DNA of 33,365 nt, from IMG/VR virus record IMGVR_UViG_3300045988_083077. The stretch is one strand, 5' to 3'. Under the pieces are notes generated by a model. That model ran no database searches. It was given only the letters and a program-made list of their open reading frames with translations, and was not told where the DNA came from. The position numbers were made by a program, and so were the translations under genes. Origin of the DNA: a virus. This document shows, piece after piece, positions 108 to 19,182 of this stretch. Within the stretch, counting starts at the first letter, position 1, and each line of letters starts with the position of its first letter.

Positions 108-1145
108 TCACACATCTGCAAGAATACGAGCTGCTTTTTCTAAATCGCTCATGTCGATGTGAGTGTAAATATTGGCAGTCATTCGTATGTCTGTATGGCC
201 CATCAGCTTTTGAGCTGTCCTGATATCAATCCCCTTTTTTGCAAGATTGGTGCAATATGTATGTCGCAGACAATACTGAACAATATCGCTTGCGAGTGGA
301 TAAGGAGGTATGGGTTTGTTCCGATAGACCTCGCATCCCATTGCAATGTTAATCTTATTCTTAAAAACTTCCCATGTTATTTGTCGGTAATTAACCTTAA
401 CCATCTTGTTTGTTCTAGTGTGGCATATATAATCATCAGCCTTTGTATCCTTGAATAAATCGTATAGCCATTGAGGAAGAGGAACGACACGATCGGCACT
501 TGCCGTTTTAGTCCCGCGAACATGTAGATAGTAGAATCTATCACGGACAATGATATCATTACCTTTGCAGTTATATGCCTCGCTTGGCCGACATCCACAA
601 TATAACATCATTAAGTACGCATAAAACTTGGTATCAGTCAAAGCGACTTTAGTAAAGTACTGCTGCTCTTCTTCCGTCAATGCTCTGCGCTTGAGTTTAA
701 AACCTGCAGGCTTTTCCAGGAACTCGGCAGGGTTGCTATTGATTAAGCCTTCCTGCACAGCTTTACCAAATATAAAGTTCATTGCTTGGTGAACCTTTGC
801 AATCTGTGATGATGACCTCCCGCGCTGACTATTGAGTACTTGCTGACAATGGAGTGGCTTGATAGATTTAAGCGAATACGATCCGATGATAGGGTCAATA
901 TTTGATTGGACGAGGTAAACAAAATTACGCTTAGTACGGTCAGAGCATTTTGTTTTATATGTTTCAATGCAGGTTTTAGACCAGGAAGTAAAGGACATAG
1001 ACGACTCTATGTACACATGACCCTTTTCCAATTCAAGTTTCCTGCGCTCCGCCTTTTGATACAACTCACGCTCGGTATCCGCGTATATTTGATAACGCTT
1101 TCCATCGAATGTAAACGAAGTCCTGAATTTATACTTCTTAGGCAT
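108..1145 (-). CDS. int: Phage tyrosine integrase (site-specific recombinase)
   Basis: 345-aa ORF. The C-terminal catalytic region LRHTYCTNLAKKGIDIRTAQKLMGHTDIRMTANIYTH shows H-x-x-R, H and Y. An upstream Arg box is present (CGCRPSEA). The gene lies directly beside the att repeat. Confidence 0.95.
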   Translation of the reverse strand: MPKKYKFRTSFTFDGKRYQIYADTERELYQKAERRKLELEKGHVYIESSMSFTSWSKTCIETYKTKCSDRTKRNFVYLVQSNIDPIIGSYSLKSIKPLHCQQVLNSQRGRSSSQIAKVHQAMNFIFGKAVQEGLINSNPAEFLEKPAGFKLKRRALTEEEQQYFTKVALTDTKFYAYLMMLYCGCRPSEAYNCKGNDIIVRDRFYYLHVRGTKTASADRVVPLPQWLYDLFKDTKADDYICHTRTNKMVKVNYRQITWEVFKNKINIAMGCEVYRNKPIPPYPLASDIVQYCLRHTYCTNLAKKGIDIRTAQKLMGHTDIRMTANIYTHIDMSDLEKAARILADV

Positions 1146-1244
1146 GATACACCTTTACTTTCTATAATATATTTTTGAGCAAAATCTTAATTAAAGAATT
1201 TTATAATTAATACTTTGAGCAAATTTTTAATTAAAAAATATTGA

Positions 1245-1267
1245 CCTGTTTCCATTTTGGAAACAGG
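1245..1267 (-). terminator. Hairpin terminator between the nuclease-like gene and the integrase gene
   Basis: Perfect 9-bp stem cctgtttcc / ggaaacagg with a 5-nt loop. On the minus strand an A/T-rich stretch with a T run follows a few bases later. Confidence 0.6.
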
Positions 1268-1291
1268 TGTGTCGTGAATGTGTTGTTATAA

Positions 1292-2041
1292 TTATGTAAC
1301 TTTCTTTTTAATAGCTTTTGATATTTTGCGTCTATACTCGGATGACTTTTCATCTTCTAGAGCATCTCGTTTGAGGACATCAGATACTAGCATCTGATAT
1401 ATCTCTTCGTTGGTCACCTTTGTATCAGCGGACACCTTTTTAAAGGTTCTTTTTATATAATTAATAACATCATCGGAAAGAATTATTTGAGCCAACATTG
1501 GAGGATTAACTAGTTTCTTTTGCACATGGTATTCGGTGAGCGAATTTCCATTTTTGCCGAGGGCTTCTTTAGAGAGCATGTATAGATAGCGAAGATGTTC
1601 GTTGTCAGTAGCTTTCAAATCATGAATATTGAACTCATATACAAGTTCATTATCTACAGGTTTACTAAAGATTATCCGATACACCTTCCATGTTTCTCCA
1701 TTAGTTAGCACAACCCAATCAATGCCAGCATTTGAACCATAATCGGTGGCCTGCTTAAGGTGATTATATTTTAAGTTAGTACCTATTGATTTGACCTCTA
1801 TTAGGAGTTTTACTTCTTCATTTAATCTTATTGCTAAATCACAAAAAGTCTTTTTTATAGCAAATTCAGATGTTATATCGTCATATTTGTCGTAACCAAA
1901 AATATCTGAAAGCATATCAACGATAATTGTGACAGTGTCACTTTCGTTCAGATCTTGCTTCTCTGCTTTAGTCAAAATGGGTTTGTACTTTTTTAACCCA
2001 TCTGCAAATCTTGATTTTACTTTAACTGGAACTGTTGCCAT
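1292..2041 (-). CDS. Stand-alone PD-(D/E)xK nuclease-fold protein resembling the type I restriction enzyme HsdR N-terminal domain (HSDR_N-like)
   Basis: 249-aa ORF. NESDTVTIIVDML...CDLAI...LLIEVKS...WVVLTNG matches the HSDR_N pattern, with D68 and E82-x-K84 as the nuclease-type core. It starts 3 nt after the repressor stop, so it is probably co-transcribed. Local G+C is low. Confidence 0.6.
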   Translation of the reverse strand: MATVPVKVKSRFADGLKKYKPILTKAEKQDLNESDTVTIIVDMLSDIFGYDKYDDITSEFAIKKTFCDLAIRLNEEVKLLIEVKSIGTNLKYNHLKQATDYGSNAGIDWVVLTNGETWKVYRIIFSKPVDNELVYEFNIHDLKATDNEHLRYLYMLSKEALGKNGNSLTEYHVQKKLVNPPMLAQIILSDDVINYIKRTFKKVSADTKVTNEEIYQMLVSDVLKRDALEDEKSSEYRRKISKAIKKKVT

Positions 2042-2043
2042 AA

Positions 2044-2490
2044 CTACCTCCTACTCAATATAAATTCCGTATATCGCAAAACATCGGCTATTTGTTCATC
2101 ACTCATAGATCTAAGATTATCCATGATGGCAAAGAATGAATCTTTATTTTGAGAAACACCTGCAGAGGAAGTAGACGAATCGTCGCAGTGGTCACAGGTG
2201 TTTGTTTTATGATTATTGTTATATAAATATTTGTTGTATGAACCACTGTCATTTAATAAAAATCCATCATTAATTAAATTCTGTTTAATATCCCATCCCA
2301 TTAAGTGGCTTGGTGTTGTTTTTAGGGCCTCTGCAAATTTTATGATTCGTGATTGTGTCATATCAACCATGCCGTTTTCAATCTTTGAAATCATTGTTTT
2401 ATCAGAATATCCGAGTTTAGCTGCGAGCTCGCTTTGTGTCAGTCCAAGTTGTAAGCGTCTATCCTTTATATTTTTATAAAGATCTAACAT
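2044..2490 (-). CDS. XRE-family HTH lysogeny repressor (cI-like), with no obvious S24 peptidase domain
   Basis: 148-aa ORF. The N-terminal RLQLGLTQSELAAKLGYSDKTMISKIENG is a classic XRE HTH. The gene is transcribed divergently from the early operon. Confidence 0.85.
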   Translation of the reverse strand: MLDLYKNIKDRRLQLGLTQSELAAKLGYSDKTMISKIENGMVDMTQSRIIKFAEALKTTPSHLMGWDIKQNLINDGFLLNDSGSYNKYLYNNNHKTNTCDHCDDSSTSSAGVSQNKDSFFAIMDNLRSMSDEQIADVLRYTEFILSRR

Positions 2491-2561: not shown

Positions 2562-2590
2562 TTGACACAACAAGCAACGAATGTTATAGT
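2562..2590 (+). promoter_or_regulatory. Sigma-70-type early (lytic) promoter
   Basis: TTGACA (2562..2567), a 17-nt spacer, then TATAGT (2585..2590), upstream of the Cro-like gene at 2623. Confidence 0.7.
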
Positions 2591-5199: not shown

Positions 5200-5643
5200 A
5201 TGATAAAGAACAGCAAACTCTATGTCTACATTGAGTACGAGGAAACTGCAAAAGGAATCATAGTTCGAAATCATCACGATGGAGTTTCGATGCTAATAAG
5301 TAAGAAGAACACAGATCAAGAAATAAGGCAGTTCAAACAAGAAATCATAGATGACATAGTCGAACTTATGTCAAATGTCCACATTAAAGAATGCAAGGTA
5401 TGTCACAAAAAATACTACACACAGTATATGCAGCAACGCAACTGCTCAAAGAAATGTAGCGAAGAGGCACAAAGAGAAAGCGTACGCAGATGCTATCAGG
5501 CAACAAAAGAAAAGGAAAACATCGGAACGGCCTCAAACAATGAGAATCTCGACAGAGAAATAGCGGCCGCAGACGCAGAAGGCATTTCGTACGGAAAGCG
5601 AAAGGCACGCGAATTTGCGAAGACAGTAAGGGTAGAAATATGA
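5200..5643 (+). CDS. Hypothetical protein with a zinc-ribbon-like motif
   Basis: ATG at 5200 lies 7 nt after AGGAGG; the track start at 5197 is TTG. CKVCHKK...CSKKC is present. Confidence 0.65.
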   Translation: MIKNSKLYVYIEYEETAKGIIVRNHHDGVSMLISKKNTDQEIRQFKQEIIDDIVELMSNVHIKECKVCHKKYYTQYMQQRNCSKKCSEEAQRESVRRCYQATKEKENIGTASNNENLDREIAAADAEGISYGKRKAREFAKTVRVEI

Positions 5644-7194
5644 AATTCATTGATTTTTTTAGCGGTGTGGGGGGGTTCACGCATGGGATGGAACTTGCAG
5701 GACACGAGTGTATTGGTCACTGTGAGTTTGACAAGTATGCAGAAGCAAGCTATCGCTCAATGCACACTATCACAGAGGGTCAACGAGAATACTTGCTTAC
5801 CTTACCGCTCAGACAAAGACAGAAGGAGATTTTAAAGGATGAGTATCTTAATGGAGAATGGTACGCAAATGATGTTCGAAGAGTTATCGCAGACGACATA
5901 CCACGAGCAGAATGTTGGTGTTTTGGATTTCCCTGCCAGGACATTAGCATCGCAGGACACCAACACGGATTTAAAGGAAATCGCTCAAGCCTATTTTTTA
6001 GAATTACAAACCTTATTGAACAGCTCAAAGAGGAAGATAGACCCGACACCCTTTTCATTGAAAATGTTAAGAATCTACTTTCTGTTAATCGAGGACTCGA
6101 CTTCGCAAGACTTCTCGTTGAGTTGGACAAAATTGGGTACGATGCGGAGTGGGAAGTTATCAACTCGAAACACCATGGCGTCCCACAAAACCGCGAAAGA
6201 GTGTTTATTGTTGGACATCTTAGAGGAGCAGGTAGACGGGAAGTATTTCCTATCGAGAAAGCAGGCGGAGAAAATTGTATTAAGCAAATAGGTCTTATAG
6301 GGGGGGGTGAAACGAGATAATCCCAATCGTTACAGAGTTTACGATCGTGAGGGAATTGCTCCCTGCCTAACAAAATGTGGAGGTGGAGGCCTAGAGGCAT
6401 ATATAACACAACCATTTGGGGTTGTAAAGACAAGCAGCAAGCTGCAAGAACTCGAAATTGCAAACTGCTTGACAGCGAATGAGGATCGAGGGGTGTCAAA
6501 GCAAGGCCCATCAGGAACTGCAGTTGCTATACCACTAGCATTTTCAGAGCAGTTTGGTATAGACAAGTCATCAAAGGCACCTCAGAAAATAGACATAGCA
6601 AATTGTCTGCTTGCAAGGGAAGACAGCGGAGTAAAAACACACTCTGCAGAGGGAACAGCAATAGCAATTCCAGTCCTAACGCCTGAGCGAGAAAACAAGC
6701 GACAGAATGGACGAAGAATGAAAGAAGATGGCGAACCCTCTTTTACACTAACAGCACAAGACAGACATGGCGTTGCAATATCCGTGCAACCAAATGATAA
6801 AAGTGGGGTGGATGAAATCAAAATAAAGGAAGCTACAAAAAAAGGATATGCTCTTGCAGACAAGGGAGATAGCGTCAACCTCGCAGTACCAAATAGCACA
6901 ACAAGACGAGGAAGAGTAGGCGACAAAGTCGCGCAGACACTAGATACATCTTGCAATCAAGGAGTTGTAGTAGAGCTATACGATGACTGCAGTGTGTGGG
7001 CAACATGGAGCGAAAAATATAACTGCTATCTTGCAATAAGAAAACTAACACCACGCGAGTGCTTTAGATTGCAAGGTTGGGAGGACGAATATTTTGAAAG
7101 GGCAGAACAGCTAAACTCAAACAATCAACTATACAAGCAGGCAGGTAACGGAGTGACAGTTAATGTAATAAAACACATAGCAGAGAGGATGTAA
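5640..7194 (+). pseudogene. DNA (cytosine-5)-methyltransferase split into two ORFs (5640..6320 and 6307..7194) by a +1 frame offset at a G8 tract; either phase-OFF or a pseudogene
   Basis: The first ORF carries motif I FSGVGGF, motif IV GFPCQDIS, motif VI ENVKNL and motif VIII QNRERVFIVG. The second carries RKLTPRECFRLQGW and the motif X-like QAGNGVTVNV. Removing one G from 6300..6307 gives a continuous frame reading ...QIGLIGGVKRDNPNRYRVYDREGIAPCLT... Confidence 0.9.
6300..6307 (+). repeat. G8 homopolymer at the junction of the two C5-methyltransferase ORFs
   Basis: Counted directly: g at 6300 plus ggggggg at 6301..6307, followed by t. Confidence 0.95.
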
Positions 7195-7436: not shown

Positions 7437-8092
7437 TTCCAAATTTTAGAGTATGGGATAAAAACTTTAAAAGAGTATGTCAGGTAGATTTTATAGACTG
7501 TCAAAGACAAATAGCAACATATCATATTAGCGAATTGGCAATCGTCACAAATCCAATAAAAAAGATTATCTTAATGCAATCAACAGGGTTAAAAGATTTC
7601 AACGGAGTAGAGATATACGAGGGGGACATATTGTTGAGCAAAGCATCGGAAAATCAAGAGGATTGGAAGAAATGGCAAGTACATTATGCAGATGGTCGGT
7701 TTTTAATTGACTACAAGCAAATTCCAAAGGACAAACGAAAACGAACCAACCTTGAACTAGAAGATTTATGCGAAGACAATATATGGCTTTATGGATTAGT
7801 AGTTATCGGCAACATATATGAAAGCACCTATCTAATTGAATCTATATTTGAACAAAGGAGAACCAAAATGTTTATGAATTTACCAAGTAGAGAAGTAGTT
7901 AAACAATTACGCGAGGAATACCCTGAAGGAACCAGGGTTAGGCTCATATCAATGCAGGATCCGTACGCACCACCAAGAGGAACAGAGGGAACTGTACAAG
8001 GGGTAGACGACGCAGGAGCCATCATGGTTGATTGGGACAACGGTAGTGGACTACACATTTTGTATGAAGTTGATTTATGCGAGAAGATATAG
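7433..8092 (+). CDS. YopX-family protein fused to a DUF4314-like C-terminal domain
   Basis: The N-terminal part FRVWDK...LMQSTGLKDFNGVEIYEGDIL...VIGNIYES is YopX-like. The C-terminal part EEYPEGTRVRLISMQDPYAPPRGTEGTVQGVDDAGAIMVDWDNGSGLHIL is DUF4314-like. An internal RBS plus ATG occurs at 7868. Confidence 0.65.
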   Translation: MIPNFRVWDKNFKRVCQVDFIDCQRQIATYHISELAIVTNPIKKIILMQSTGLKDFNGVEIYEGDILLSKASENQEDWKKWQVHYADGRFLIDYKQIPKDKRKRTNLELEDLCEDNIWLYGLVVIGNIYESTYLIESIFEQRRTKMFMNLPSREVVKQLREEYPEGTRVRLISMQDPYAPPRGTEGTVQGVDDAGAIMVDWDNGSGLHILYEVDLCEKI

Positions 8093-8698: not shown

Positions 8699-8828
8699 GT
8701 GATTGCGATGTGTGACAAGTTCAAGAATTTATAAAAACCTACATTATATATATAGGAAAAAAGACGAGCTCGTGTGAAGAGCATTGCAGCTCGATAAGAG
8801 TATTAGTAATAGAGGGAAAAAACGAGAG

Positions 8829-9647
8829 ATGGCCAAGATAAAACAAGTAGCTATAAAAGAGACATGCGTAGCAGGAAGAACTATTGAGCATGTCATTAAA
8901 CTTCCATCAGGATGTCATAAAGGAAAGAGGGCGCAAAGAATGAATGCCACACCCGAAAATGTAAAGAAAATAAACGACATCATAGCAGAGCGAAACTTTA
9001 GAAGATTAATCAATCATAATTTTGGATATGGATCAGGACACTACACACTAACATATGGCCATGATGAGCCAACACCTGCAGAGGCAAAGAAGCACCTCAA
9101 GAATTTTTTAAACAGACTCAAGTATGCAATGGGAGACGAGCTAAAGTGGATTGCTGTTACAGAATACGAAAATAAGCGAATCCATCACCATGTTATAATC
9201 AACACTTGCGATGCAGCCCTTATAAACAAGAAATGGGGCAAGGGATGGGTAAAGCCAACACTGTTTGATGACAGTGGGGATTATCACCTACTTGCAAACT
9301 ATTTGATAAAAGAGACACAGAAAACTTTTAGAGATGAAGATTGTCCAACTAAGCGCAGATATTCCTGCAGTCGAAATTTAGAGAAACCGATAGTTAAAAG
9401 AGAGCCAGTAAGTATTGCGGCTCTATTTGACGATCCAAAGGCAATCAAAGGTTATTATATAGCAAAAGACAGCATAAGGAGATACACACATCCTGTAACG
9501 GGACTTGATTACCTGGAATACACTGAGATAGCCTTGGACAAACCAAGAAAGTATAAGGTGTGGCCACGAGGAAAGACGGTCCGTGCAGAGGGACCTATAA
9601 AAATAAGAGAAAGGGAAAAGCAGCTTGGTATTGCCGAGCTCGGTTAG
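8829..9647 (+). CDS. HUH-superfamily Rep-like endonuclease (putative rolling-circle-type replication initiator)
   Basis: ATG at 8829 is preferred. Three ordered motifs are present: HYTLTY (motif 1-like), KRIHHHVIIN (HUH) and LANYLIKE (Y-x-x-K). Confidence 0.5.
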   Translation: MAKIKQVAIKETCVAGRTIEHVIKLPSGCHKGKRAQRMNATPENVKKINDIIAERNFRRLINHNFGYGSGHYTLTYGHDEPTPAEAKKHLKNFLNRLKYAMGDELKWIAVTEYENKRIHHHVIINTCDAALINKKWGKGWVKPTLFDDSGDYHLLANYLIKETQKTFRDEDCPTKRRYSCSRNLEKPIVKREPVSIAALFDDPKAIKGYYIAKDSIRRYTHPVTGLDYLEYTEIALDKPRKYKVWPRGKTVRAEGPIKIREREKQLGIAELG

Positions 9648-10043: not shown

Positions 10044-10176
10044 AATCAAAACTTCGGATACCAGGGAAAAAAAACAGTGTTATCATGATAGTGTGGAGTG
10101 TGACGGGATAAGGGCAACGGCACACCGCAATACATCTCTCAAACTAAAGTGTTTGAAACTCATAATTCACTAAGCA

Positions 10177-10206
10177 AAGGGCAGTTTTATAGCTGCCTTT
10201 TGTTTT
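10177..10206 (+). terminator. Rho-independent terminator-like hairpin upstream of the ParB-methyltransferase gene
   Basis: An aagggcag / ctgccttt stem with an 8-nt loop is followed by a T-rich tail. It lies inside the 5-prime extension of track ORF 10149..11087, which argues that the real start is ATG 10227. Confidence 0.55.
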
Positions 10207-10226
10207 GCTTATTTTCAGGAGAAGAA

Positions 10227-11415
10227 ATGAATTACAAAGAAATAGAAATCAGCAAGCTAATGCCATACGAGAACAATGCAAGAACGCACAGTGAGGCACA
10301 GCTAAATAGAATTGCAGAAAGCATAAGCGAGTTTGGATTCATCAATCCGATACTAATTGACAAGGAATACGGAATTATCGCAGGTCATGGAAGAATGATG
10401 GCAGCAAAACAACTCGGAATAGACAAGGTGCCTTGCTTATTTGTTGAGCATCTAAGTGAGGAACAGAAACGAGCATACATAATCGCAGACAATAAACTCG
10501 CACTAGACGCGGGATGGGATTACGACATACTCGAAAGCGAGATGAAAGCACTGCAGGAGATGGACTTTGATTTAGAGCTAACGGGTTTCACGGAAGATGA
10601 AATCGCAGGCATAATCAAACTAGGAACTGAAGAGGAATACGAGGACGACTTTGACCCTGAAGAGGCACTACCTGAAGAGGCAGTCACAAAGCCAGGAGAC
10701 ATATGGCAGATAGGAGAACATGTACTTGCATGTGGCGATAGTACGAACAACGAGGACATGAAGAGGCTTTTAGATGGCAGGGTGGTAGATTTAATAGTCA
10801 CAGATCCACCATACAATGTGGCATATGAAGGCAAGACAAAGGACAAACTGAAGATTCAAAACGACCATCAATCAACTGACGACTTCACAGCCTTCCTAGA
10901 GGCAGCGTTTAAAAACATGGCAGAATGGCTAAAACCTGGGGGGGGTGGTCTACATATGGCACGCAGACACGATGAGAAAGGCTTTTTTAGATGCAATAGA
11001 GCAGACAGACTTATCAGTACGAGAAGTGCTTGTTTGGGTAAAGAATACGATGGTTCTAGGACGACAAGATTACCATTGGCAGCATGAACCCTGCCTTTAC
11101 GGATGGAAAGAAGGAGCTGCACACTATTTTATCGATGACAGAACGCAGACAACAGTAATGCAGTACGACAAACCTGCAAAGAGCATAGAACATCCAACAA
11201 TGAAACCTATCGAGTTAATTGCAAAACAAATACAGAACAGCAGCAGAACAAACGAGATCGTTTTGGATCCATTTGGTGGAAGTGGCACAACTCTTATAGC
11301 ATGCGAACATCTGAAGAGGAAATGCTTAACCATGGAACTAGATCCAAGGTACTGTGATGTCATCGTAAAAAGATGGGAAGAACTAACGGGACAAAAAGCT
11401 GAAAGGCTAACATAA
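10227..11415 (+). pseudogene. ParB-like N-terminal domain fused to a beta-class N6-adenine/N4-cytosine DNA methyltransferase, split by a +1 frame offset at a G8 tract; either phase-OFF or a pseudogene
   Basis: The ParB/Srx-like part is PYENNARTHS...IIAGHGRMMAAKQLG. Catalytic motif IV is IVTDPPYNV. After the break comes the AdoMet motif VLDPFGGSGTTLIACE. Removing one G from 10938..10945 gives ...EWLKPGGVVYIWHADT... in a continuous frame. Confidence 0.9.
10938..10945 (+). repeat. G8 homopolymer at the junction of the two ParB-methyltransferase ORFs
   Basis: Counted directly: ggg at 10938..10940 plus ggggg at 10941..10945, followed by t. Confidence 0.95.
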
Positions 11416-11891: not shown

Positions 11892-13254
11892 CTTTCCATT
11901 GAGCCAAAAGTATATTGACTTTATCAACACCACAGAGGGGGTAAGTGCTGAGTTTCTAGAGGGGACTACAGCATCGGGAAAGACAACAGTTGGTGCATCT
12001 GTCAAGTTCATGCGAATGGTATCCAAAAGCAATCAAAAATTGCATATACTAGCAAGCACAACAATCGGAACTGCTGAGAAGAATATCATCAACCAGGATA
12101 ACGGAATCCTTGATGTACACAAGAACGCAGAGTACCGTGGAAATGGCGACAAGGAGAACAAACTATCTCACATAAGGTTTGAAGACAAGATTATCTATGT
12201 ATTAGGCTACAACGATGCACAGAAGTGGAAGTTAGCACTTGGAGGACAGTATGGCTGTGTGTTTATAGACGAGATAAACACAGCGAATATGGAATTCGTG
12301 CGAGAGGTATCAGTAAGAAACGAATATCTATTAGCGACACTCAATCCCGACAATCCTGCACTGCCTATATACAAAGAGTTTATAAACCATTCACGGCCGT
12401 TTAAAAAGTATAGAGCAGATGTGCCTGAAGAGATATTAAAAGAACTAGTAGAAACACCAATTCCAGGATGGAGGTATTGGTTTTTTAGTTTTAAAGATAA
12501 TGCAAGCCTCACTGAAGAGGCTATCGAAAAAAAGAAACAATCTGCACCGCCAGGGACAAAGTTATACAAAAACAAGATTCAAGGCTTGCGTGGAAGAGCA
12601 ACGGGCATCGTTTTTATTAACTTTGAGCAAAAGAAACACACCATCAAGGCAAGTTATATAAAAGAGCAAATAGAACGAGGAGAGGTCAAGTTTGCTCGTT
12701 TTACTGCGGGACTAGACACAGCTTACTCAAGCAAGAGCCCTGATACGATTTCGATGATATTTCAGGGCATAACAACAAAGGGTGTATTGATAACACTCGA
12801 TGAAGAGGTATACAACAACGCATCAGTAGACATACCAATCGCACCATCGGACACAGCAGAACGATTTGTAAAATTCCTCGAAAAGAACCGAAAGGAATGG
12901 GGGTTTGCTAAAGATGTGTTTGTGGACAGTGCGGACCAGGCAACATTGACGGAACTGAACAAATACAAGCGAACAAACGGAAGCATATATAACTTCATCG
13001 GTTCGTATAAAAAGACAAAGATTATAGACCGAATCAATCTGCAAATCGGATGGATAGCAAAGGGTTTATATCTTGTCTGCGACCACTGTATAGAACACTT
13101 AAAAGAGATAGACACATACAGTTGGGACGATAAGAAAGACATGCCTGAAGATGGAAACGACCACACAATCAATGCATCGCAGTATGCGTGGTTGCCATAC
13201 AAGGAAATCATCGGAAAGGAAGAAAGACAAAGTGGGATTGATGAATATGATTAA
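11872..13254 (+). CDS. terL: Terminase large subunit
   Basis: 460-aa ORF. Walker A-like GTTASGKTT and Walker B-like CVFIDEIN are present, with a C-terminal nuclease-type region. The GTG start overlaps the end of terS. Confidence 0.9.
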   Translation: MRALKSNFPLSQKYIDFINTTEGVSAEFLEGTTASGKTTVGASVKFMRMVSKSNQKLHILASTTIGTAEKNIINQDNGILDVHKNAEYRGNGDKENKLSHIRFEDKIIYVLGYNDAQKWKLALGGQYGCVFIDEINTANMEFVREVSVRNEYLLATLNPDNPALPIYKEFINHSRPFKKYRADVPEEILKELVETPIPGWRYWFFSFKDNASLTEEAIEKKKQSAPPGTKLYKNKIQGLRGRATGIVFINFEQKKHTIKASYIKEQIERGEVKFARFTAGLDTAYSSKSPDTISMIFQGITTKGVLITLDEEVYNNASVDIPIAPSDTAERFVKFLEKNRKEWGFAKDVFVDSADQATLTELNKYKRTNGSIYNFIGSYKKTKIIDRINLQIGWIAKGLYLVCDHCIEHLKEIDTYSWDDKKDMPEDGNDHTINASQYAWLPYKEIIGKEERQSGIDEYD

Positions 13255-14716
13255 AAATAGCTTAAGAAACTTTTTAGAAATCGAAGATGCAATGCCTGGA
13301 GTAATCAGGATAACTGCTGCAATGACATTTGAGGACAATGCGGCAAAGAACCGCATATGGTACAGAGGTGATGCATACGAGCTATCGCAACTATACACAC
13401 AGATTGCCACACCTAATGCAAGCGTGTCGTTTTGGGGAGCAAGGTCAACACCAGGGATGGAAATAAAAAGAGTACACACAGGACTGCCTGGTCTTATTGT
13501 GGACATGCTAACGAGCATTACTTTGACGGATCTAAACGCAATCGAAATCAAATCAAAAGACATCGAGGATAGATGGGAGCAAATAGCTGCGGAGAATAAC
13601 ATCAAGGAGGTACTCAAAGAGGCAACCAAAGAGGCGCTGTACATAGGCGATGGGGTATTCAAGATAGGGTTCGATCCTAAAATAAGCAAATTGCCAATCG
13701 TCGAGTGGGTGCCAGGGGACAGAGTGGAACTAATATTTAATCGCAAGCGACTCAAAGAGGTGATTGTAAAGACATTCTTTACAGAAGAAAGACACAACTA
13801 CACACTCATAGAGCGATATGGCTATGGTTATCTGAAAAACGAGTTATATCGCAATGAACAAACGGTAGATTTAAATAGCACGCAGTTCACGAGCACACTG
13901 TCGGATTACAAATTCGACGAAAACCTCATACTTGCTGTGCCTTTTAACATCTATGGCTCAAGCAAGTGGGAAGGAAGAGGACAGTCTATTTTTGACCGTA
14001 AAACAGACAGCTTTGATAGTTTGGATGAGGCATGGTCGCAATGGATGGATGCGTTAAGAGCGGGCAGGACAAGGGAGTATATTCCTGAATGCTTTTTGCC
14101 ACGCGATCCAAATACGGGCATGGTGATGAAACCTAACGCATTTGATAATCGCTTTATAAAGACCGACACAGACAACCGCGAGGGGGCGTCAAACAAGATA
14201 GAAATTGAACAGCCTGCAATTCCACACGATAGCTATTTGTCAACATACATCACAGCACTAGATCTAGCACTGCAAGGAATAGTCAGTCCGTCGACGCTTG
14301 GAATCGATGTTAAAAAGCTAGACAATGCAGAGGCACAGCGCGAAAAGGAAAAGGCGACACTATATACACGAGACGCAATCATTGAGGCACTGTCATCGTG
14401 CATACCAAAACTCGTCAATATGACAATTAACGCGGCTGCAGTGATGGAAAAGAAACCATTTGAAGAGGTGGAAGTCACAATCACATTTGGTGAATACGCA
14501 AATCCGTCATTTGAGTCGCAGGTGGAAACTATCGCAAAGGCAAAGTCAGGAGGCATTCTAAGTATAGAGGCAACAATCGAGGAACTATATGGCGATTCCA
14601 AAACAGAGGAATGGAAAGCACAAGAGGTGCAGAGGCTAAAAGCCGAGCAAGGGTTCATCGAACTAGACGAACCATCTGCAAACGAATCGCTTGATGGATT
14701 TGCAATAGAGGATTAA
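13241..14716 (+). CDS. Portal protein (SPP1 gp6-like)
   Basis: Long ORF immediately after terL. ATG 13241 (or 13247) is preferred over the track start at 13151, which lies deep inside terL. Size is about 490 aa. Confidence 0.85.
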   Translation: MNMIKNSLRNFLEIEDAMPGVIRITAAMTFEDNAAKNRIWYRGDAYELSQLYTQIATPNASVSFWGARSTPGMEIKRVHTGLPGLIVDMLTSITLTDLNAIEIKSKDIEDRWEQIAAENNIKEVLKEATKEALYIGDGVFKIGFDPKISKLPIVEWVPGDRVELIFNRKRLKEVIVKTFFTEERHNYTLIERYGYGYLKNELYRNEQTVDLNSTQFTSTLSDYKFDENLILAVPFNIYGSSKWEGRGQSIFDRKTDSFDSLDEAWSQWMDALRAGRTREYIPECFLPRDPNTGMVMKPNAFDNRFIKTDTDNREGASNKIEIEQPAIPHDSYLSTYITALDLALQGIVSPSTLGIDVKKLDNAEAQREKEKATLYTRDAIIEALSSCIPKLVNMTINAAAVMEKKPFEEVEVTITFGEYANPSFESQVETIAKAKSGGILSIEATIEELYGDSKTEEWKAQEVQRLKAEQGFIELDEPSANESLDGFAIED

Positions 14717-14719
14717 ACG

Positions 14720-14944
14720 ATGGTAATCGTACACATACTAAAGCGCGTATACCAAATGAGAAATGCAGAGGCAGAGGGATTGCTAAAGATAGCGTCCGAT
14801 TCTGTCTCTTTTGGTATTTACGCAGTCAGGAAGGACAATCAAATCCAAATGCTCAACATTAAATGCGAGAGCAAAACACAGCTCAAAGCAGAGATAAGGG
14901 CATGGAAGAGGCAAGGATACAAGGTATACAGCAATGGACTATGA
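14720..14944 (+). CDS. Hypothetical small protein between the portal and MuF genes
   Basis: 74-aa ORF with an RBS (agagga). It overlaps the next gene start. Confidence 0.6.
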   Translation: MVIVHILKRVYQMRNAEAEGLLKIASDSVSFGIYAVRKDNQIQMLNIKCESKTQLKAEIRAWKRQGYKVYSNGL

Positions 14945-16565
14945 TGTAGCAAGGTCACTCGCACGAATCGAGGACGATATCACAGCATCGCTTATAAGGA
15001 ATCTAAAGCACCATAGAGCGCAGGAAACTGAAGAGGGACTAGAGTGGGTGCAATGGCAAACAGTCCAACTGCAGGAATTAGACAAATTCAAACGCAAATA
15101 CGCAAAAAAACTAAATAAGGAATTCAAGCGAATCAATCCACACATAGACGAGGCAATCAACGAAGCGTTTAATCAAGGCAAGATGGATGAAGAGGTTGCA
15201 ATCCTGGAATCCATCAAAGAGGGAAAAGGAAAAGGCAAGGCATATCGAAGAGGTTCGTCCTTCTTTCAAAAGGACAACAAGATCGAGAAGATTATAAATG
15301 CAACCACAAACGATATGGAGAAGGCGGAATACGCAATCCTTCGAAGAGCGAACGATCAATATCGTAAGATCATATTTGATGCACAAATGTATGCAGCAAG
15401 TGGAGCGGGAACATACGAGAAGGCAATCGACATGGCAACCCACGACTTTTTGAGTGCAGGGATAAACTGCGTGCAGTACAAAAACGGAGCAAGGGTCAGT
15501 GTGTCAAAGTATGCTGAGATGGCCATAAGGACAGCAACAAAGAGAGCGTACTTACAAGGACAAGGTGAGATGCGCCAGGAGTGGGGCATAAGCACAGTCA
15601 TACTAAATAAGCGCACAAGTGCATGTCCATTGTGTGCGCCTTTTGTTGGCAAGGTATTTATTGACGATGTGTGGAGCGGAGGGACAAGCAAAGATGGAAA
15701 CTATCCTTTGCTTTCATCTGCTATTGCCGCAGGACTATATCATCCAAACTGTAAAGATTCGCACACGACATACTTTCCAGGGACAAGCACAAAGCCTGAG
15801 CATATCACAAGACGAGATCTAGTAAAGATGGTCAGTGAGGCAAAGCGGGAATCAAAAGCAACATACTGCGAACGACAAGCAGAAAGGTGTGGGAGACTTG
15901 CTAGGTATTCTTTAGACACAGACAAGCAAAAGACGTTTAATGCAAGAAAAGAAAAATGGAAAAAGGCAATTATCAACGAAAGAGTTGAAAACAATGCAGA
16001 TTTGGGTATAATAAAAAACATAACAATCGATGACATCTCGGAAATTAAAGAAATTTTAGCCGATAAATTCGGAGAAGATGTAGAGATAAAAAACGAGGTA
16101 ATGGATGCAATATATAATAGCCTTGCTAAATTTGATGGACTTGATTTTTATGGAGCAATCAGAGTAAAGCAATTAGAAAAAAACATCATGTTTCAAACAG
16201 ATTCTGAACAGTTTGGAACATGGGCCAAAAACGCATTTATAGTTAATAGAGAGGCCCTCAGAGGCAAATCGGTTAAAGAAATAGACAAAATGTTTAGAGA
16301 TACAGACCATACAGTGTGTAATTCTCTTGAAGACGCGGTTTATCACGAATATATGCATGCTCTGACGACAAAAAAAGTCATGTTTGCAAAATACGAACAA
16401 CTCTGCGAGGCTAAAGGGTATGAAGAAATTAGCAAAGTAGCTCAAAGCGATTTAGCGGAGACTATTGCAGAAATAGGGGTATTAAAAAAACAAGGTAAAT
16501 ATAACACAGTTTCTGAAAGAGGGAAAAAGCTATTTGAAGAAATTATAGGAGAAACAAAATGGTAA
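14934..16565 (+). CDS. Head-morphogenesis / minor capsid protein (SPP1 gp7 / Mu F family) with a C-terminal HExxH-containing extension
   Basis: The MuF-type core includes TSACPLCAPFVGKVF...LYHPNCKDSHTTY. A C-terminal extension of about 180 aa contains AVYHEYMHAL, with HEYMH encoded at 16344..16358. A marked G+C drop begins near 15900. Confidence 0.85.
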   Translation: MDYDVARSLARIEDDITASLIRNLKHHRAQETEEGLEWVQWQTVQLQELDKFKRKYAKKLNKEFKRINPHIDEAINEAFNQGKMDEEVAILESIKEGKGKGKAYRRGSSFFQKDNKIEKIINATTNDMEKAEYAILRRANDQYRKIIFDAQMYAASGAGTYEKAIDMATHDFLSAGINCVQYKNGARVSVSKYAEMAIRTATKRAYLQGQGEMRQEWGISTVILNKRTSACPLCAPFVGKVFIDDVWSGGTSKDGNYPLLSSAIAAGLYHPNCKDSHTTYFPGTSTKPEHITRRDLVKMVSEAKRESKATYCERQAERCGRLARYSLDTDKQKTFNARKEKWKKAIINERVENNADLGIIKNITIDDISEIKEILADKFGEDVEIKNEVMDAIYNSLAKFDGLDFYGAIRVKQLEKNIMFQTDSEQFGTWAKNAFIVNREALRGKSVKEIDKMFRDTDHTVCNSLEDAVYHEYMHALTTKKVMFAKYEQLCEAKGYEEISKVAQSDLAETIAEIGVLKKQGKYNTVSERGKKLFEEIIGETKW

Positions 16566-16813
16566 GAGTAGATCGATGTGGATTTTGTAAACACCGTTTG
16601 TCAGAAAAAGGAGAACGTTTTAAGTGCAAAGCATTTCCAGTTACAACGCCAAGGTACTTTTATGAGAATGGTGGAGAATGTGCTAATGGATATCGCTTTG
16701 AAGTAATACCAGAGAGAGAAGAGGAATATAAAAGCCTGTGGGAAAAAAAAGGAGAGTCTCACCCGCGCTTAGATCCTCCTATAATAGTAAATGAACGCGT
16801 ATCAATAGAATAA
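16559..16813 (+). CDS. Hypothetical small protein translationally coupled to the MuF gene (candidate partner or immunity protein)
   Basis: 84-aa ORF with a 7-nt overlap to the MuF stop and an AGGAG RBS. A CGFC motif is present. A terminator follows. Confidence 0.6.
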   Translation: MVRVDRCGFCKHRLSEKGERFKCKAFPVTTPRYFYENGGECANGYRFEVIPEREEEYKSLWEKKGESHPRLDPPIIVNERVSIE

Positions 16814-16836
16814 CTTGTAAAAAAAACAGTATATCA

Positions 16837-16862
16837 AGCATCGCATAGCGCGGTGCTTTTTT
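16837..16862 (+). terminator. Rho-independent terminator
   Basis: A 7-bp stem gcatcgc / gcggtgc (one G-U pair) with a 5-nt loop, followed by TTTTTT. Confidence 0.7.
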
Positions 16863-16882
16863 AGTGGAAAAAGGAGGATCAT

Positions 16883-17194
16883 ATGAAATTATCAGACACT
16901 ATCGACTTGATGAACAGCGCAGACTATAAGGACAGATTCTGTGCAGAGTACTATCAAACAATGGAACGCTACAACAAATTGCACAGGCTTGTAATCAAGC
17001 TAGAAGCAAAGACAGCAGAATTCACGCCAACGTGTGGCATAGATTTGCTCAAAAAGCAAAAGGCAGCTATGGGTGAGTATCTGTACTGCTTAGAGGTGAG
17101 GGCGGAAATCGAAGGAATCGATCTTATGAAAAAGCAGCCATGTCAGGAGAGACTGCACAATATCGGGGCAGGCGCTTTAGCTTCAGCAACATGA
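16883..17194 (+). CDS. Hypothetical protein
   Basis: 103-aa ORF with a strong RBS (aaaggagg). Confidence 0.7.
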   Translation: MKLSDTIDLMNSADYKDRFCAEYYQTMERYNKLHRLVIKLEAKTAEFTPTCGIDLLKKQKAAMGEYLYCLEVRAEIEGIDLMKKQPCQERLHNIGAGALASAT

Positions 17195-17231
17195 AATAAC
17201 AAAGATTATTTAGGATTAGGAGGAAGAAAAA

Positions 17232-17519
17232 ATGAAACACGAAGACTTTATAAAGCTATGCGCAAGAAAAGTCGCAGAATACGAAAACAGCAGAAAGGAC
17301 ATCAATGTCCAAATAGATCGTGACAATGTATTTTGCGTATGGTCATGCAAAACACTACAGAATAGTAAGTGCTTGATGTCTGCACCACATAAGGGTGCTA
17401 AGTATTACGAGTTTACATACAACGGAGACAAGCATGAAGTATACATGGATGTGTATAGCAAGGATATTAACATCCCATTTGCAGAGGACGGAACACAAAT
17501 CACAACAAGAATAAGATAA
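17232..17519 (+). CDS. Hypothetical protein
   Basis: 95-aa ORF with a strong RBS (taggagg). Confidence 0.7.
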   Translation: MKHEDFIKLCARKVAEYENSRKDINVQIDRDNVFCVWSCKTLQNSKCLMSAPHKGAKYYEFTYNGDKHEVYMDVYSKDINIPFAEDGTQITTRIR

Positions 17520-17523
17520 ACCA

Positions 17524-17548
17524 AGAAGGCACATAGCTTTCTTTTTTT
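17524..17548 (+). terminator. Rho-independent terminator
   Basis: A 7-bp stem agaaggc / gctttct (one G-U pair) with loop acata, followed by TTTTTT. Confidence 0.6.
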
Positions 17549-17573
17549 ATTGTCCGAAGACAGAAAACTACAC

Positions 17574-17650
17574 GGAGACACCGTGCAACAACTGAAGAGG
17601 GAGACACCCTTATAACTGAGAACGAGAGACACTCGAAAAACTGAAAGGAA
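17574..17650 (+). repeat. Three imperfect direct repeats (GAGACAC-N8/10-AACTGA) upstream of the scaffold/capsid operon
   Basis: The three units are ggagacaccgtgcaacaactgaagag, ggagacacccttataactgagaac and gagacactcgaaaaactgaaagg, arranged head to tail between a terminator and the scaffold gene. Confidence 0.7.
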
Positions 17651-17662
17651 AGGTATTTTAAA

Positions 17663-18262
17663 ATGGCAGATGGAATCAACACACAGAACCAGGCACAAGG
17701 CGATGGAAATCAGAATCAGGCAACACAGAACACAAATGCAGGAGTAAGCAATCAGGGAACAGCAAAGATTGACTTTGATTACGAAAAACTCGCAGGCATA
17801 GTAAGTGGAGCACAGACTGTGAAGGAAGAGGCGGTGTTAAAGAACTACTTTAAACAGCAGGGATTAAGTCAGGACGAAGTCACGCAGGCCATATCGCAGT
17901 TTAAGGCGCAAAAAGAAGCAAATACACCAAATGTACAAGACCTGCAGGAAAAACTAACACAGGCGCAGACAATGGCTCACGCAGCCCAAATAGACAGTGC
18001 ATTGCAGATTGCAGCCTTAAAAGGGAATGTAGAAATCAGCAACTTGCCTTATGTTTTAAAGCTAGTTGACAGAAGTACGCTCACCGTAGAATCTACAGAG
18101 GACGATTATATCGCTGCAGTGAACAAGGTTTTGGAAGATGTGCCAGCTCTCAAAAAGACAACAGATGAGCAGGGTGCAGGATTTCAGCAAGTAGGCGCAG
18201 GAGCAACGGGAGGTGCAAACACCTCGCAAGCTGATGCACTTAAAAAGATTTTTGGTAATTAG
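17663..18262 (+). CDS. Putative capsid scaffolding protein
   Basis: 199-aa ORF immediately upstream of the major capsid gene. It has a Q/N-rich N-terminus and a helical, low-complexity character. Confidence 0.55.
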   Translation: MADGINTQNQAQGDGNQNQATQNTNAGVSNQGTAKIDFDYEKLAGIVSGAQTVKEEAVLKNYFKQQGLSQDEVTQAISQFKAQKEANTPNVQDLQEKLTQAQTMAHAAQIDSALQIAALKGNVEISNLPYVLKLVDRSTLTVESTEDDYIAAVNKVLEDVPALKKTTDEQGAGFQQVGAGATGGANTSQADALKKIFGN

Positions 18263-18279
18263 AAAGAGAGGAATTTAAA

Positions 18280-19182
18280 ATGGCAGTATACAATTATGCA
18301 GAACAGTTTTCGACGGAGCTACAGCAGAAGTATTCAAGGGAGCAAACATCATATGCGCTTACGCAGTCAAACCCTGGAGTAAAGTTTTTGAATGCACAGA
18401 CAATCAAGCTCCCATCAATCACAGTTTCAGGCTATAAGGATCACAATCGTCAGGGAAGTGGATTCAATGCAGGAAACCTGACAAACGAGTGGGAGCCTAA
18501 GAAACTCACACACGACAGAGACATTGAGCTAAGAGTAGATCCTATGGACGTTGACGAGACAAACTTAGTGTTGGACATGGCAAACGTACAGAATGCGCTT
18601 GAAACAGATCAGACAATTCCTGAGAAGGACAAATACAACTTCTCAAAGCTCTATGCAGAAGCAAAGACTTATGCAGCAAACGGAGCAAGCATTGTCACAA
18701 CTGCACTCACAGCGGCAAATGTGCTTGATTGGTTTGACGAGGCAATGGAAAAGATGGACGATGAAAGTGTTCCATCAGAGGGCAGAATTCTATATGTGAC
18801 GCCCGCAGTGAGAAAGTTACTTAAGAGGGCAGATGGAATACAGAGAACGTTAGATGTAACATCTGGCAACAAGAACATCAACAGAAACGTACACAGCATC
18901 GATGATGTAGAAATCGTTAGCGTACCATCTGCTCGCATGAAGACAAAGTACAACTTCACAGAGGGGGCAGTTCCCGCACCTACAGCAAAGCAGATCAGAG
19001 CAATTCTAGTCCACCCTTCATGTGTAGTAGCGAGAGACAAGTATTCTTATATCAATGTATTCACGCCAGGGCACGATGCAAAGACAGCGGATTCATATTT
19101 GCTACAGAGCAGATTCTACATGGATCTATTCTTGATTAAAAACAAGGCAACAGGCGTTTGCATCAACGCAGAGGCAGAGTAG
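18280..19182 (+). CDS. Major capsid protein
   Basis: 300-aa ORF in the canonical position. The N-terminus AVYNYAEQFSTELQQKYSRE...IKLPSITVSGYKDHNR resembles major capsid proteins of Gram-positive siphophages. Confidence 0.8.
   Translation: MAVYNYAEQFSTELQQKYSREQTSYALTQSNPGVKFLNAQTIKLPSITVSGYKDHNRQGSGFNAGNLTNEWEPKKLTHDRDIELRVDPMDVDETNLVLDMANVQNALETDQTIPEKDKYNFSKLYAEAKTYAANGASIVTTALTAANVLDWFDEAMEKMDDESVPSEGRILYVTPAVRKLLKRADGIQRTLDVTSGNKNINRNVHSIDDVEIVSVPSARMKTKYNFTEGAVPAPTAKQIRAILVHPSCVVARDKYSYINVFTPGHDAKTADSYLLQSRFYMDLFLIKNKATGVCINAEAE

Follow-up and report, generated by a model that had tools for sequence, protein, structure and literature searches.

The 33,365-nucleotide (nt) viral sequence IMGVR_UViG_3300045988_083077, the whole of which is referred to below as the window, contains a gene (14934..16565, + strand) in which a head protein of the MuF superfamily is fused to a C-terminal domain carrying an HExxH motif. 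The question raised by this locus is what such a domain does on a minor head protein and where it came from. We lean slightly towards the reading that the fusion is a zincin effector which is anchored by its MuF part and leaves the capsid with the DNA, and that a small protein with four conserved cysteines (the 4-Cys protein), encoded directly downstream, is its cognate inhibitor or immunity protein, made by coupling and from a promoter embedded in the upstream coding sequence.

The gene codes for 543 amino acids (aa) and matches the minor head protein family phrog_581 (E 1.8e-70); more than 6,000 homologues of the fusion protein were found in a protein search. Residues 9-318 (14958..15887, + strand) form a head-anchoring domain matching PF06152 (Phage_min_cap2, E 7.1e-38), which is the 'MuF2' branch of the MuF superfamily (Jamet et al. 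2017, PMC5576092). An initial annotation of the window, made from the sequence alone, had described an ordinary SPP1 gp7/Mu F N-terminus. The superfamily was correct, but no direct Pfam match to PF04233 (Phage_Mu_F) was found in the 543-aa protein.

The C-terminal part stands apart from the rest of the gene in its composition. The G+C content is 44.7% in the N-terminal part (14934..15928; G+C at third codon positions, GC3, 44%) and 33.4% in the C-terminal part (15929..16565; GC3 28%), compared with 41.1% for the window, in which the lysogeny module near 1100..2400 goes lower still, to 32%. The hand counts given in the initial annotation were reproduced exactly (32.5% at 16021..16140 and 50.0% at 15421..15480). 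The shift coincides to the base with the homology breakpoint against the sister phages described below, and the separate unit comprises aa 333-543, starting at nt 15929. The distinct low-GC unit proposed earlier is therefore real, but it begins at aa 333 and not at about aa 360.

The HEYMH active-site motif (H471, E472, H475) is encoded at 16344..16358 (+ strand; CACGAATATATGCAT), exactly as annotated, and is followed by E509-x3-E513 within the peptide AETIAE (16458..16472, + strand), the candidate third zinc ligand and a supporting glutamate, as judged from conservation and from alignment with anthrax lethal factor. The domain was aligned with its relatives in sets of 10, 14, 76 and 94 sequences. 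H471, E472, H475, E509 and E513 are invariant (100%) in the 94-sequence alignment, while the median identity in the large alignment is only about 33%; N438 (98%), K361 (94%), D506 (91%) and S500 (90%) are nearly so. Among the 149 top homologues, HExxH is kept in 146, of which 145 also have the downstream E-x3-E and one has E-x3-D; in the other three the motif is degraded (HKCGH, HEIGY and HEYGN). Full-length relatives at 42-50% identity also retain both HExxH and the later AExxAE. This invariance across homologues shows that the HExxH is not a chance motif.

The family is large. In an exhaustive profile search with a hidden Markov model (HMM) over 1.84 billion representatives of clusters at 50% identity, 774 proteins were found at E ≤ 1e-3 and 132 at E ≤ 1e-30, and the domain lay at the extreme C-terminus in all of the 150 matches listed. 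Only 1-3 matches were obtained when the C-terminus alone was used in a word-indexed protein search. In 50,697 GenBank phage records no match was obtained by megablast of 13151..19182 or by tblastn with two zincin domains, the window's own and that of a central family member. A profile search of genome contigs with the domain alignment gave only two metagenome-assembled genomes (MAGs), from a Clostridia bacterium and a Ruminococcus sp., and a scan of genome contigs with the full 543-aa protein gave no close relatives. The zincin family is thus known only from metagenomes and MAG prophages.

To what fold the domain belongs was examined by AlphaFold2 with a 14-sequence alignment (predicted local distance difference test, pLDDT, 77.7; predicted template modelling score 0.78). 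The model contains a zincin-like metallopeptidase core at aa 387-543 (16092..16562, + strand; pLDDT in blocks of 80-95) with the order helix, three strands, helix, HExxH helix, helix and a helix bearing E509 and E513. HEYMH lies on helix 128-142 of the model and the two glutamates, one of them the putative third metal ligand, on helix 170-182. A zincin-type HExxH domain, as originally annotated, thus has both the invariant residues and the modelled topology. A Foldseek search of predicted viral structures (BFVD) gave matches labelled Matrixin, minor capsid protein, Metalloprotease and Lethal factor (E 3e-12; template modelling score, TM, 0.74). Against the PDB, the top Foldseek match was anthrax lethal factor, 4dv8, below threshold (E 0.06, probability 0.8, TM 0.39-0.43), and a profile search of PDB sequences also had lethal factor at the top (2l0r, E 0.068, again sub-threshold), in an alignment that pairs HExxH with HEFGH and AExxAE with AEFFAE. 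A PDB sequence search with the C-terminal region gave no significant match. The families suggested initially, MPTase-PolyVal and SprT-like/WLM, could not be confirmed: like ATLF and Peptidase_M78/M90/M91, they did not match the window protein at E ≤ 1, and a Pfam search with 14 family members gave only weak matches of single members to ATLF (0.0019), M90 (0.0075) and WLM (0.0084). Since no curated family was matched and the lethal factor matches are sub-threshold, the zincin was placed in no curated family; the model suggests a zincin of lethal-factor-like type, for which proteolysis is the predicted activity.

The origin of the domain became clear from comparison with three sister phages whose MuF protein has a JAB-type C-terminus (L001-L003) and with a more distant phage that carries the zincin (L004). 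According to blastn, L001-L003 are 96-97% identical to the window up to 15928 and 94-98% from 17217 onwards, and between these positions nothing aligns except a short stretch around a terminator-like hairpin. In a three-way alignment the nearest relative switches at 15928..15929, right after the codons for the conserved SLDTDKQ, and this is the left recombination junction. The N-terminal part of the MuF gene (14934..15928) is 98.3-98.5% identical to L001-L003 and 86.9% to L004. The zincin-coding part (15929..16565), the small open reading frame (ORF; 16559..16813) and the third gene (16883..17216) have no similarity to L001-L003 and are respectively 98.6%, 97.6% and 91.7% identical to L004, while the intergenic stretch 16814..16882 shares only the hairpin with L001-L003 and is 97.1% identical to L004. 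The flanks of the block are again 90-99% identical to L001-L003 and 88-94% to L004; backbone homology resumes at the right junction, 17216..17217, just 5' of the ribosome-binding site of a DUF6275 gene (17232..17519). From these incongruent identities it is clear that 15929..17216 is a recent recombinational replacement in the phage backbone. The recently swapped 3' cassette of the initial annotation was thus confirmed, except that the replaced block takes in two further genes beyond the 3' part of the MuF gene.

The block looks like two units. The first, 15929..16882 (+ strand; G+C 33-38%), which is identified by its identity to L004, comprises the coding part for aa 333-543, the small ORF and the intergenic stretch with the hairpin; the second, 16883..17194 with the block extending to 17216 (+ strand), is a Sequestin-family gene (PF21825). 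They are parted by the hairpin, the only sequence common to the zincin and JAB cassette types, which for this reason may be a recombination anchor between two swappable units.

The closest homologues of the window protein, about 60 clusters of 552 aa, are 90% identical to it over the first 70% of the protein only, and their C-terminus contains an HNHPNS...PSRDD motif with weak matches to Prok-JAB and RadC (E 0.02-0.04). Comparison of MuF genes therefore revealed a different cassette in near-identical sisters, so that the C-terminus is neither conserved together with the core nor similar to the backbone in composition (33.4% vs 44.7% G+C). Variable MuF C-termini had been anticipated, and the 118 nearest MuF2 homologues indeed fall into 20 unrelated C-terminal clusters, including ADP-ribosyltransferases (ARTs) and other Pfam-annotated domains. 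Other zincin clades among them have an Asp soon after the motif (HExxHxxD or HExxHxD), and these clusters were not detected by the HMM of the present family. In every locus examined, GC3 of the last 615 nt of the MuF gene was 8-45 points below that of the N-terminal part (for instance 36% vs 79% in L029 and 35% vs 80% in L007). The low G+C is independent of that of the phage itself and is found alike in zincin, JAB-like and other HExxH types, which suggests that phages of different G+C content draw on a common pool of circulating AT-rich cassettes.

The second component of the cassette is the small ORF at 16559..16813 (+ strand), which codes for the 84-aa 4-Cys protein, the candidate cognate inhibitor or immunity protein. 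It is preceded by an AGGAG Shine-Dalgarno sequence, and its start overlaps the stop of the zincin gene by 7 nt. Homologues are 52-84 aa long and share C7, C10, K11, C23, A25, P27, P31, E40, C41, G44 and E48; judged by this sequence pattern, the four cysteines look like those of a zinc ribbon, and the copy in the window has an extra tail of 35 residues. The protein did not match Pfam or any known immunity family, and five of 11 members of the 4-Cys family matched phrog_33375, whose function is unknown.

The two genes are linked with great regularity. A search of viral contigs with the zincin domain gave ten loci, all with a 4-Cys ORF directly downstream. The reciprocal search with the 4-Cys protein gave 12 further loci, of which ten had the zincin directly upstream, one was cut at the contig end and one was an orphan. 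In an HMM census the pair was present, at a distance of -13..+6 nt, in all 31 fetched loci in which both genes were visible (about 20 of them non-redundant). It was found behind three different N-termini (Phage_Mu_F, Phage_min_cap2 and VG15), after an ART domain in 734-aa proteins, and with a standalone 209-aa zincin gene, while L001 and L007, with other C-terminal types, have different small ORFs and no 4-Cys gene. We also noticed that zincin genes often end in Gly-Gly or Gly-Gly-Gly codons (…IGGI, …TTGGG, …FLGG), for example in L011-L017 and at 16540..16558 of the window; since these GGA/GGN codons also serve the 4-Cys ORF as its Shine-Dalgarno sequence, they represent a second dual coding/regulatory constraint in the cassette, besides that of the promoter considered below.

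Two loci have the 4-Cys gene in another setting. In L032, an orphan 4-Cys gene comes after a MuF1 protein that has another type of HExxH domain and a 61-aa ORF of its own; this 4-Cys gene is 79% identical to that of L030, although the flanks are 66% identical and the C-termini unrelated. In L035 (4847..5663), from the chromosome of a Eubacteriales MAG, a truncated 135-aa zincin has beside it an intact 4-Cys gene (84 aa), with rpsI/rplM as neighbours. By their sequence context these copies resemble displaced immunity genes with a putative neutralising function. The L035 islet is non-phage, includes a 59-aa ORF resembling a helix-turn-helix (HTH) protein and has a G+C content of 29% against 34% for the locus; its zincin fragment (P0121) has kept the catalytic helices and lost the sheet. 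Another arrangement was observed in L038 (567..2771) and in the proteins P0159 and P0247, where MuF1, an ART domain (PF03496) and a C-terminal zincin form a three-part protein. In genes of this type the 4-Cys ORF comes next and the embedded promoter is at the same distance; the ART domain seems to have no small ORF of its own.

How could the 4-Cys protein be made when the head genes are silent? Inside the protease-coding sequence, at 15985..16012 (+ strand), there is a sigma-A/70-type promoter sequence, TTGAAA-16 nt-TATAAT, which matches the consensus at 11 of 12 positions. It lies 56 nt past the left junction and 547 nt ahead of the small ORF, and its -10 box shares nucleotides with the codons of G358-I359-I360. 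On the + strand of the window there are two matches of at least 11/12, compared with a mean of 0.41 in shuffled sequence. The other one, TTGACA-17 nt-TATAGT at 2562..2590, just beyond the divergent HTH repressor gene, is likely, from its sequence and position, to be the promoter for early lytic transcription in the genetic switch.

In 14 of 17 divergent loci, and in L038 as well, the small ORF is preceded at a distance of 529-588 nt by a match of at least 10/12. With a background of 15 such matches in 121.6 kb the binomial P is about 1e-24, a value to be read with caution, since the loci stem from about ten lineages and are partly dependent. The -35 box is encoded in two codon phases by the peptides V-[EDA]-N, I-D-N, L-E-N, L-[TQ]-N, L-T-G and L-V-R, and the -10 box by G-I-I, D-I-I, D-K-I, G-K-I, G-I-M, T-Y-N and S-T-I. 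The Ser, Asn or Thr codon before the -10 box always ends in T, and an extended -10 (TGn) is present in 11 of 14 loci. Because the same boxes recur where the encoded peptides and the codon phase differ, the constraint must be on the DNA and not on the protein. The conserved peptide IIK[SN]I around K361 was also considered as a purely protein motif, which had to be rejected in part, as the boxes are encoded elsewhere by T-Y-N, D-K-I and S-T-I and in other phases.

Between the promoter and the hairpin of the window, the 4-Cys ORF is the only ORF of any length preceded by a Shine-Dalgarno sequence. The hairpin (16836..16865, + strand) has a 9-bp stem at 16836..16858, AAGCATCGC-ATAGC-GCGGTGCTT, followed by a T-run; its counterpart in L001 is at about 7845..7880, and 14 of 21 loci have a comparable hairpin 3' of the small ORF. 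With promoter, cargo and terminator, the first unit thus has, as far as sequence tells, the anatomy of a moron. It was also noticed that the terminator-like hairpin is in the middle of the head-gene operon, so late transcription must pass it toward the scaffold and capsid genes, and that promoter-like sites also occur in two other cassettes, in that of L032 at its 5' edge and in the JAB type shortly before the small ORF.

Taken in sequence, the steps of the favoured effector interpretation would be as follows. A self-contained unit consisting of promoter, protease-coding sequence, 4-Cys gene and terminator moved recently into the backbone at the end of the conserved MuF core, replacing the JAB-like module still carried by the closest sisters. 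During lytic growth the full-length fusion would be made and anchored by its MuF part in the procapsid near the portal; this targeting to the procapsid is deduced from published work on SPP1 gp7 and Mu F, of which PMC5512222 and PMC5576092 give summaries. By analogy with these and other MuF proteins, the fusion would be packaged, would leave the capsid together with the DNA, and the protease would act in the newly infected cell, where it may be toxic, with host proteins, its own linker or both as targets. The 4-Cys protein, as a putative inhibitor or immunity protein of the zincin, would be translated by coupling in lytic growth, and in the lysogen it would come from the embedded promoter. We propose that the promoter makes it independent of the late operon, including in the prophage, so that both producer cells and lysogens would be protected.

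Several results weigh against this interpretation. The similarity to solved zincins is sub-threshold in both searches (Foldseek 0.06, HMM 0.068), and the C-terminus of the window protein has no match in Pfam at E ≤ 1 and none in NCBIfam. The promoter is a consensus match in the sequence, and three of the 17 loci have no such match. An RNA started there would run untranslated through about 540 nt of protease-coding sequence before it reached the small ORF, and such a design is unusual. The 84-aa protein was poorly predicted by AlphaFold from its single sequence (pLDDT 46.6). Mirror-tree correlations did not discriminate (r of 0.54 for zincin vs small ORF and 0.57 for zincin vs N-terminus). Finally, where the domain order is MuF-ART-zincin, the protease at the C-terminus may serve for processing and not as an effector.

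This last point leads to the strongest alternative, an autoprocessing protease, which we regard as unlikely but worth serious attention. Here the zincin would cut its own polypeptide, for example in the linker near IIK[SN]I..DD, or other head proteins, so that the module, or an effector preceding it, would be released from the MuF anchor either in the capsid or after ejection, and the 4-Cys protein would keep the protease inactive until assembly. Such a role has been proposed for the zincin metallopeptidases (MPTases) of polyvalent proteins (Iyer et al. 2017, PMC5512222), and the MuF-ART-zincin order, with the protease last, and the position at the extreme C-terminus in the 150 matches listed would both suit it. 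K361, about 110 residues before HExxH, is unusually well conserved (94%) for a linker, and one BFVD match is annotated as 'capsid maturation protease'. However, most members, including the one in the window, have nothing to release but the protease itself, and the -10 box embedded in the DNA of the IIK segment accounts for at least part of its conservation. The domain is moreover replaced by a JAB-like one in the sisters and by ART or other domains in distant relatives, and being replaceable, it is not needed for head assembly. The effector and the autoprocessing interpretations are not mutually exclusive.

An alternative for the small gene, which seems to us distinctly improbable, is that the 4-Cys protein is a positive partner of the protease (a zinc or folding chaperone, or a substrate adaptor) or a hitch-hiking prophage gene, such as a zinc-ribbon regulator or a lysogenic-conversion factor. 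Four conserved cysteines are typical of zinc ribbons, which are often nucleic-acid binders, and a promoter and terminator of its own are what is seen in phage morons; the lack of a match to a known immunity family, the absence of a known function for phrog_33375 and the 35-residue tail of the window copy are also compatible with it. On the other hand, the gene is strictly paired with one protease family in three N-terminal contexts and beside standalone genes, is absent behind other C-terminal types, and overlaps the protease gene through its start and stop codons. Its retention as an orphan behind a different toxin/small-ORF pair and beside a truncated protease is classic behaviour of an immunity gene.

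That the domain is catalytically dead, a capsid-internal spacer or DNA-binding piece using HExxH only for metal-dependent folding, could be argued from the missing curated peptidase match and the three degraded motifs among 149 homologues, but this is very hard to reconcile with five catalytic-type residues conserved at 100% despite about 33% median identity, with the general-base Glu kept along with the metal ligands, and with a dedicated, tightly linked partner gene. A role as prohead maturation protease was rejected, as the domain is swapped for a JAB-like one in near-identical phages and there is no protease Pfam match.

Returning to the effector reading, the arrangement of the locus allows it to be extended, although more tentatively. 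MuF C-terminal cassettes may be autonomous, moron-like units with a promoter in the effector-coding sequence; the 4-Cys protein would be expressed constitutively and immunise the lysogen against the protease brought in by the virions of kin phages, full-length protease would be made in lytic growth only, and the unit would move as a whole between unrelated head-protein genes. We consider this possible, though rather less than an even prospect.

Similar arrangements are known. In phage morons a gene with its own promoter and terminator is inserted in an operon, and in E-type colicin operons the immunity gene has its own promoter inside the toxin gene, which could give constitutive expression. 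The present locus is similar in having promoter, gene and terminator within a late operon and a predicted promoter inside the upstream toxin-coding sequence; it differs in the position of the promoter, which is separated from the small ORF by about 540 nt and lies at the 5' border of a mobile protein-coding module.

A small putative immunity ORF usually comes after a MuF toxin gene, and metallopeptidase domains were present in 20% of 191 MuF toxins (PMC5576092). The window gene shares with these toxins the MuF-superfamily N-terminus, the position after the portal gene, a temperate Firmicutes phage as carrier, a variable C-terminal domain and a small ORF directly downstream. Because the domain belongs to no curated toxin or peptidase family, by the criteria of PMC5576092 it would count as an extension without known domain. 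The text of that paper contains no mention of a promoter or of recombination, and the 4-Cys partner family is not described in it. Only two MuF toxins have been characterised so far (PMC11699363), the (p)ppApp synthetase Apk2 and the ADP-ribosyltransferase Bxa, and their adjacent immunity proteins were tested experimentally (PMC11699363, PMC10083569). A MuF head-targeting domain fused to an enzyme, a small adjacent ORF and co-occurrence of toxin and partner across relatives are common to these systems and ours. In Apk2 and Bxa the small ORFs neutralise the enzyme. The candidate enzyme here is a zincin peptidase, and there is no enzymatic second immunity gene.

The zincin MPTases of polyvalent proteins have a three-stranded sheet, an N-terminal helix, an HExxH helix and a Glu helix (Iyer et al. 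2017, PMC5512222). The window domain resembles them in the predicted core topology, in being phage-borne, in its fusions to MuF and ART and in the remote link to lethal factor, with 4dv8 at the top both of that analysis and of our fold search, but the window protein matches no MPTase or peptidase Pfam family at E ≤ 1. It also lacks the Asp after the motif that is present in other MuF2-borne clusters (HExxHxxD or HExxHxD), having E-x3-E instead. With anthrax lethal factor itself (ATLF, PF07737; 4dv8, 2l0r), HExxH and AExxAE align residue for residue, but lethal factor is a much larger multi-domain toxin compared with a domain of about 160 aa, and with matches of E 0.06-0.07 membership is not established.

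The second swapped unit codes for a 103-aa Sequestin-family protein (16883..17194, + strand; PF21825, crAss001_48/Sequestin, E 1.4e-17), a candidate anti-Thoeris nucleotide sponge. Proteins of the PF21825 family sequester 3'cADPR and block type I Thoeris (bioRxiv 10.1101/2025.07.12.664507). The same position is occupied by a DUF4406 protein in L001-L003 and by HNH endonucleases or Sequestin-like genes in other loci. This suggests a variable counter-defence slot directly after the MuF cassette and that this part of the head module is a counter-defence hotspot.

The surroundings are those of a complete-looking temperate siphophage from the gut. The portal gene (13151..14716, + strand; PF05133 SPP1_portal, E 1.5e-5), which has the same position in all sister loci, is followed by one 74-aa ORF and the MuF2-zincin gene. 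This ORF (14720..14944, + strand; phrog_25639, unknown function) overlaps the MuF start and is present in all sister phages; its DNA is 91-92% identical to that of the JAB sisters, below the 96-98% of the flanking genes. There is a candidate large terminase without a Pfam match, an ORF of about 200 aa at the scaffold position and one of 300 aa at the major-capsid position. Lysogeny genes are represented by a tyrosine integrase (108..1145) and the HTH repressor (2044..2490, - strand), and methylases, a Rep protein, a tail module and a GH25 lysin are also present. The hosts of the relatives are Clostridia, including Blautia, Ruminococcus and Eubacteriales MAGs. No known RNA was found within the window using Rfam.

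Some other genes of the window deserve mention. Two adjacent ORFs (5640..6320 and 6307..7194, + strand) match the N-terminal half and the C-terminal part, respectively, of PF00145 (C-5 cytosine DNA methylase), and they are either a split or frameshifted gene or a protein with an insertion. The ORF at 8784..9647 (+ strand) codes for a Rep-like protein (REP_ORF2-G2P with a weak match to a relaxase nuclease domain), and that at 10149..11087 (+ strand) for a ParB_N domain joined to a partial N6/N4 methylase; some sister contigs have this second gene intact (395 aa) and others have it split.

MuF polymorphic toxins, including metallopeptidase types, and their small downstream ORFs were already known (PMC5576092), as were zincin MPTases fused to MuF and ART in polyvalent proteins (PMC5512222). 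In the portions of the literature compared, this zincin family, its 4-Cys partner, a coding-embedded promoter and a base-resolved swap between near-identical phages appear to be undescribed. Natural phages that are nearly isogenic and differ mainly in 15929..17216 offer a clean system for studying the function of a capsid-delivered protease and the protection of lysogens. The coding-embedded promoter persists although the codons differ, which makes it a testable case of a sequence under both coding and regulatory constraint, and it may explain how the immunity genes of phage-borne toxins are expressed in the prophage. If the cassettes are indeed autonomous units, this would be the first MuF protease-inhibitor pair, and the 4-Cys protein a new class of zincin inhibitor. 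MuF-fused effectors are thought to be injected with the phage DNA, and the locus described here defines a large, previously unannotated family of predicted proteases among them, together with a dedicated small partner.

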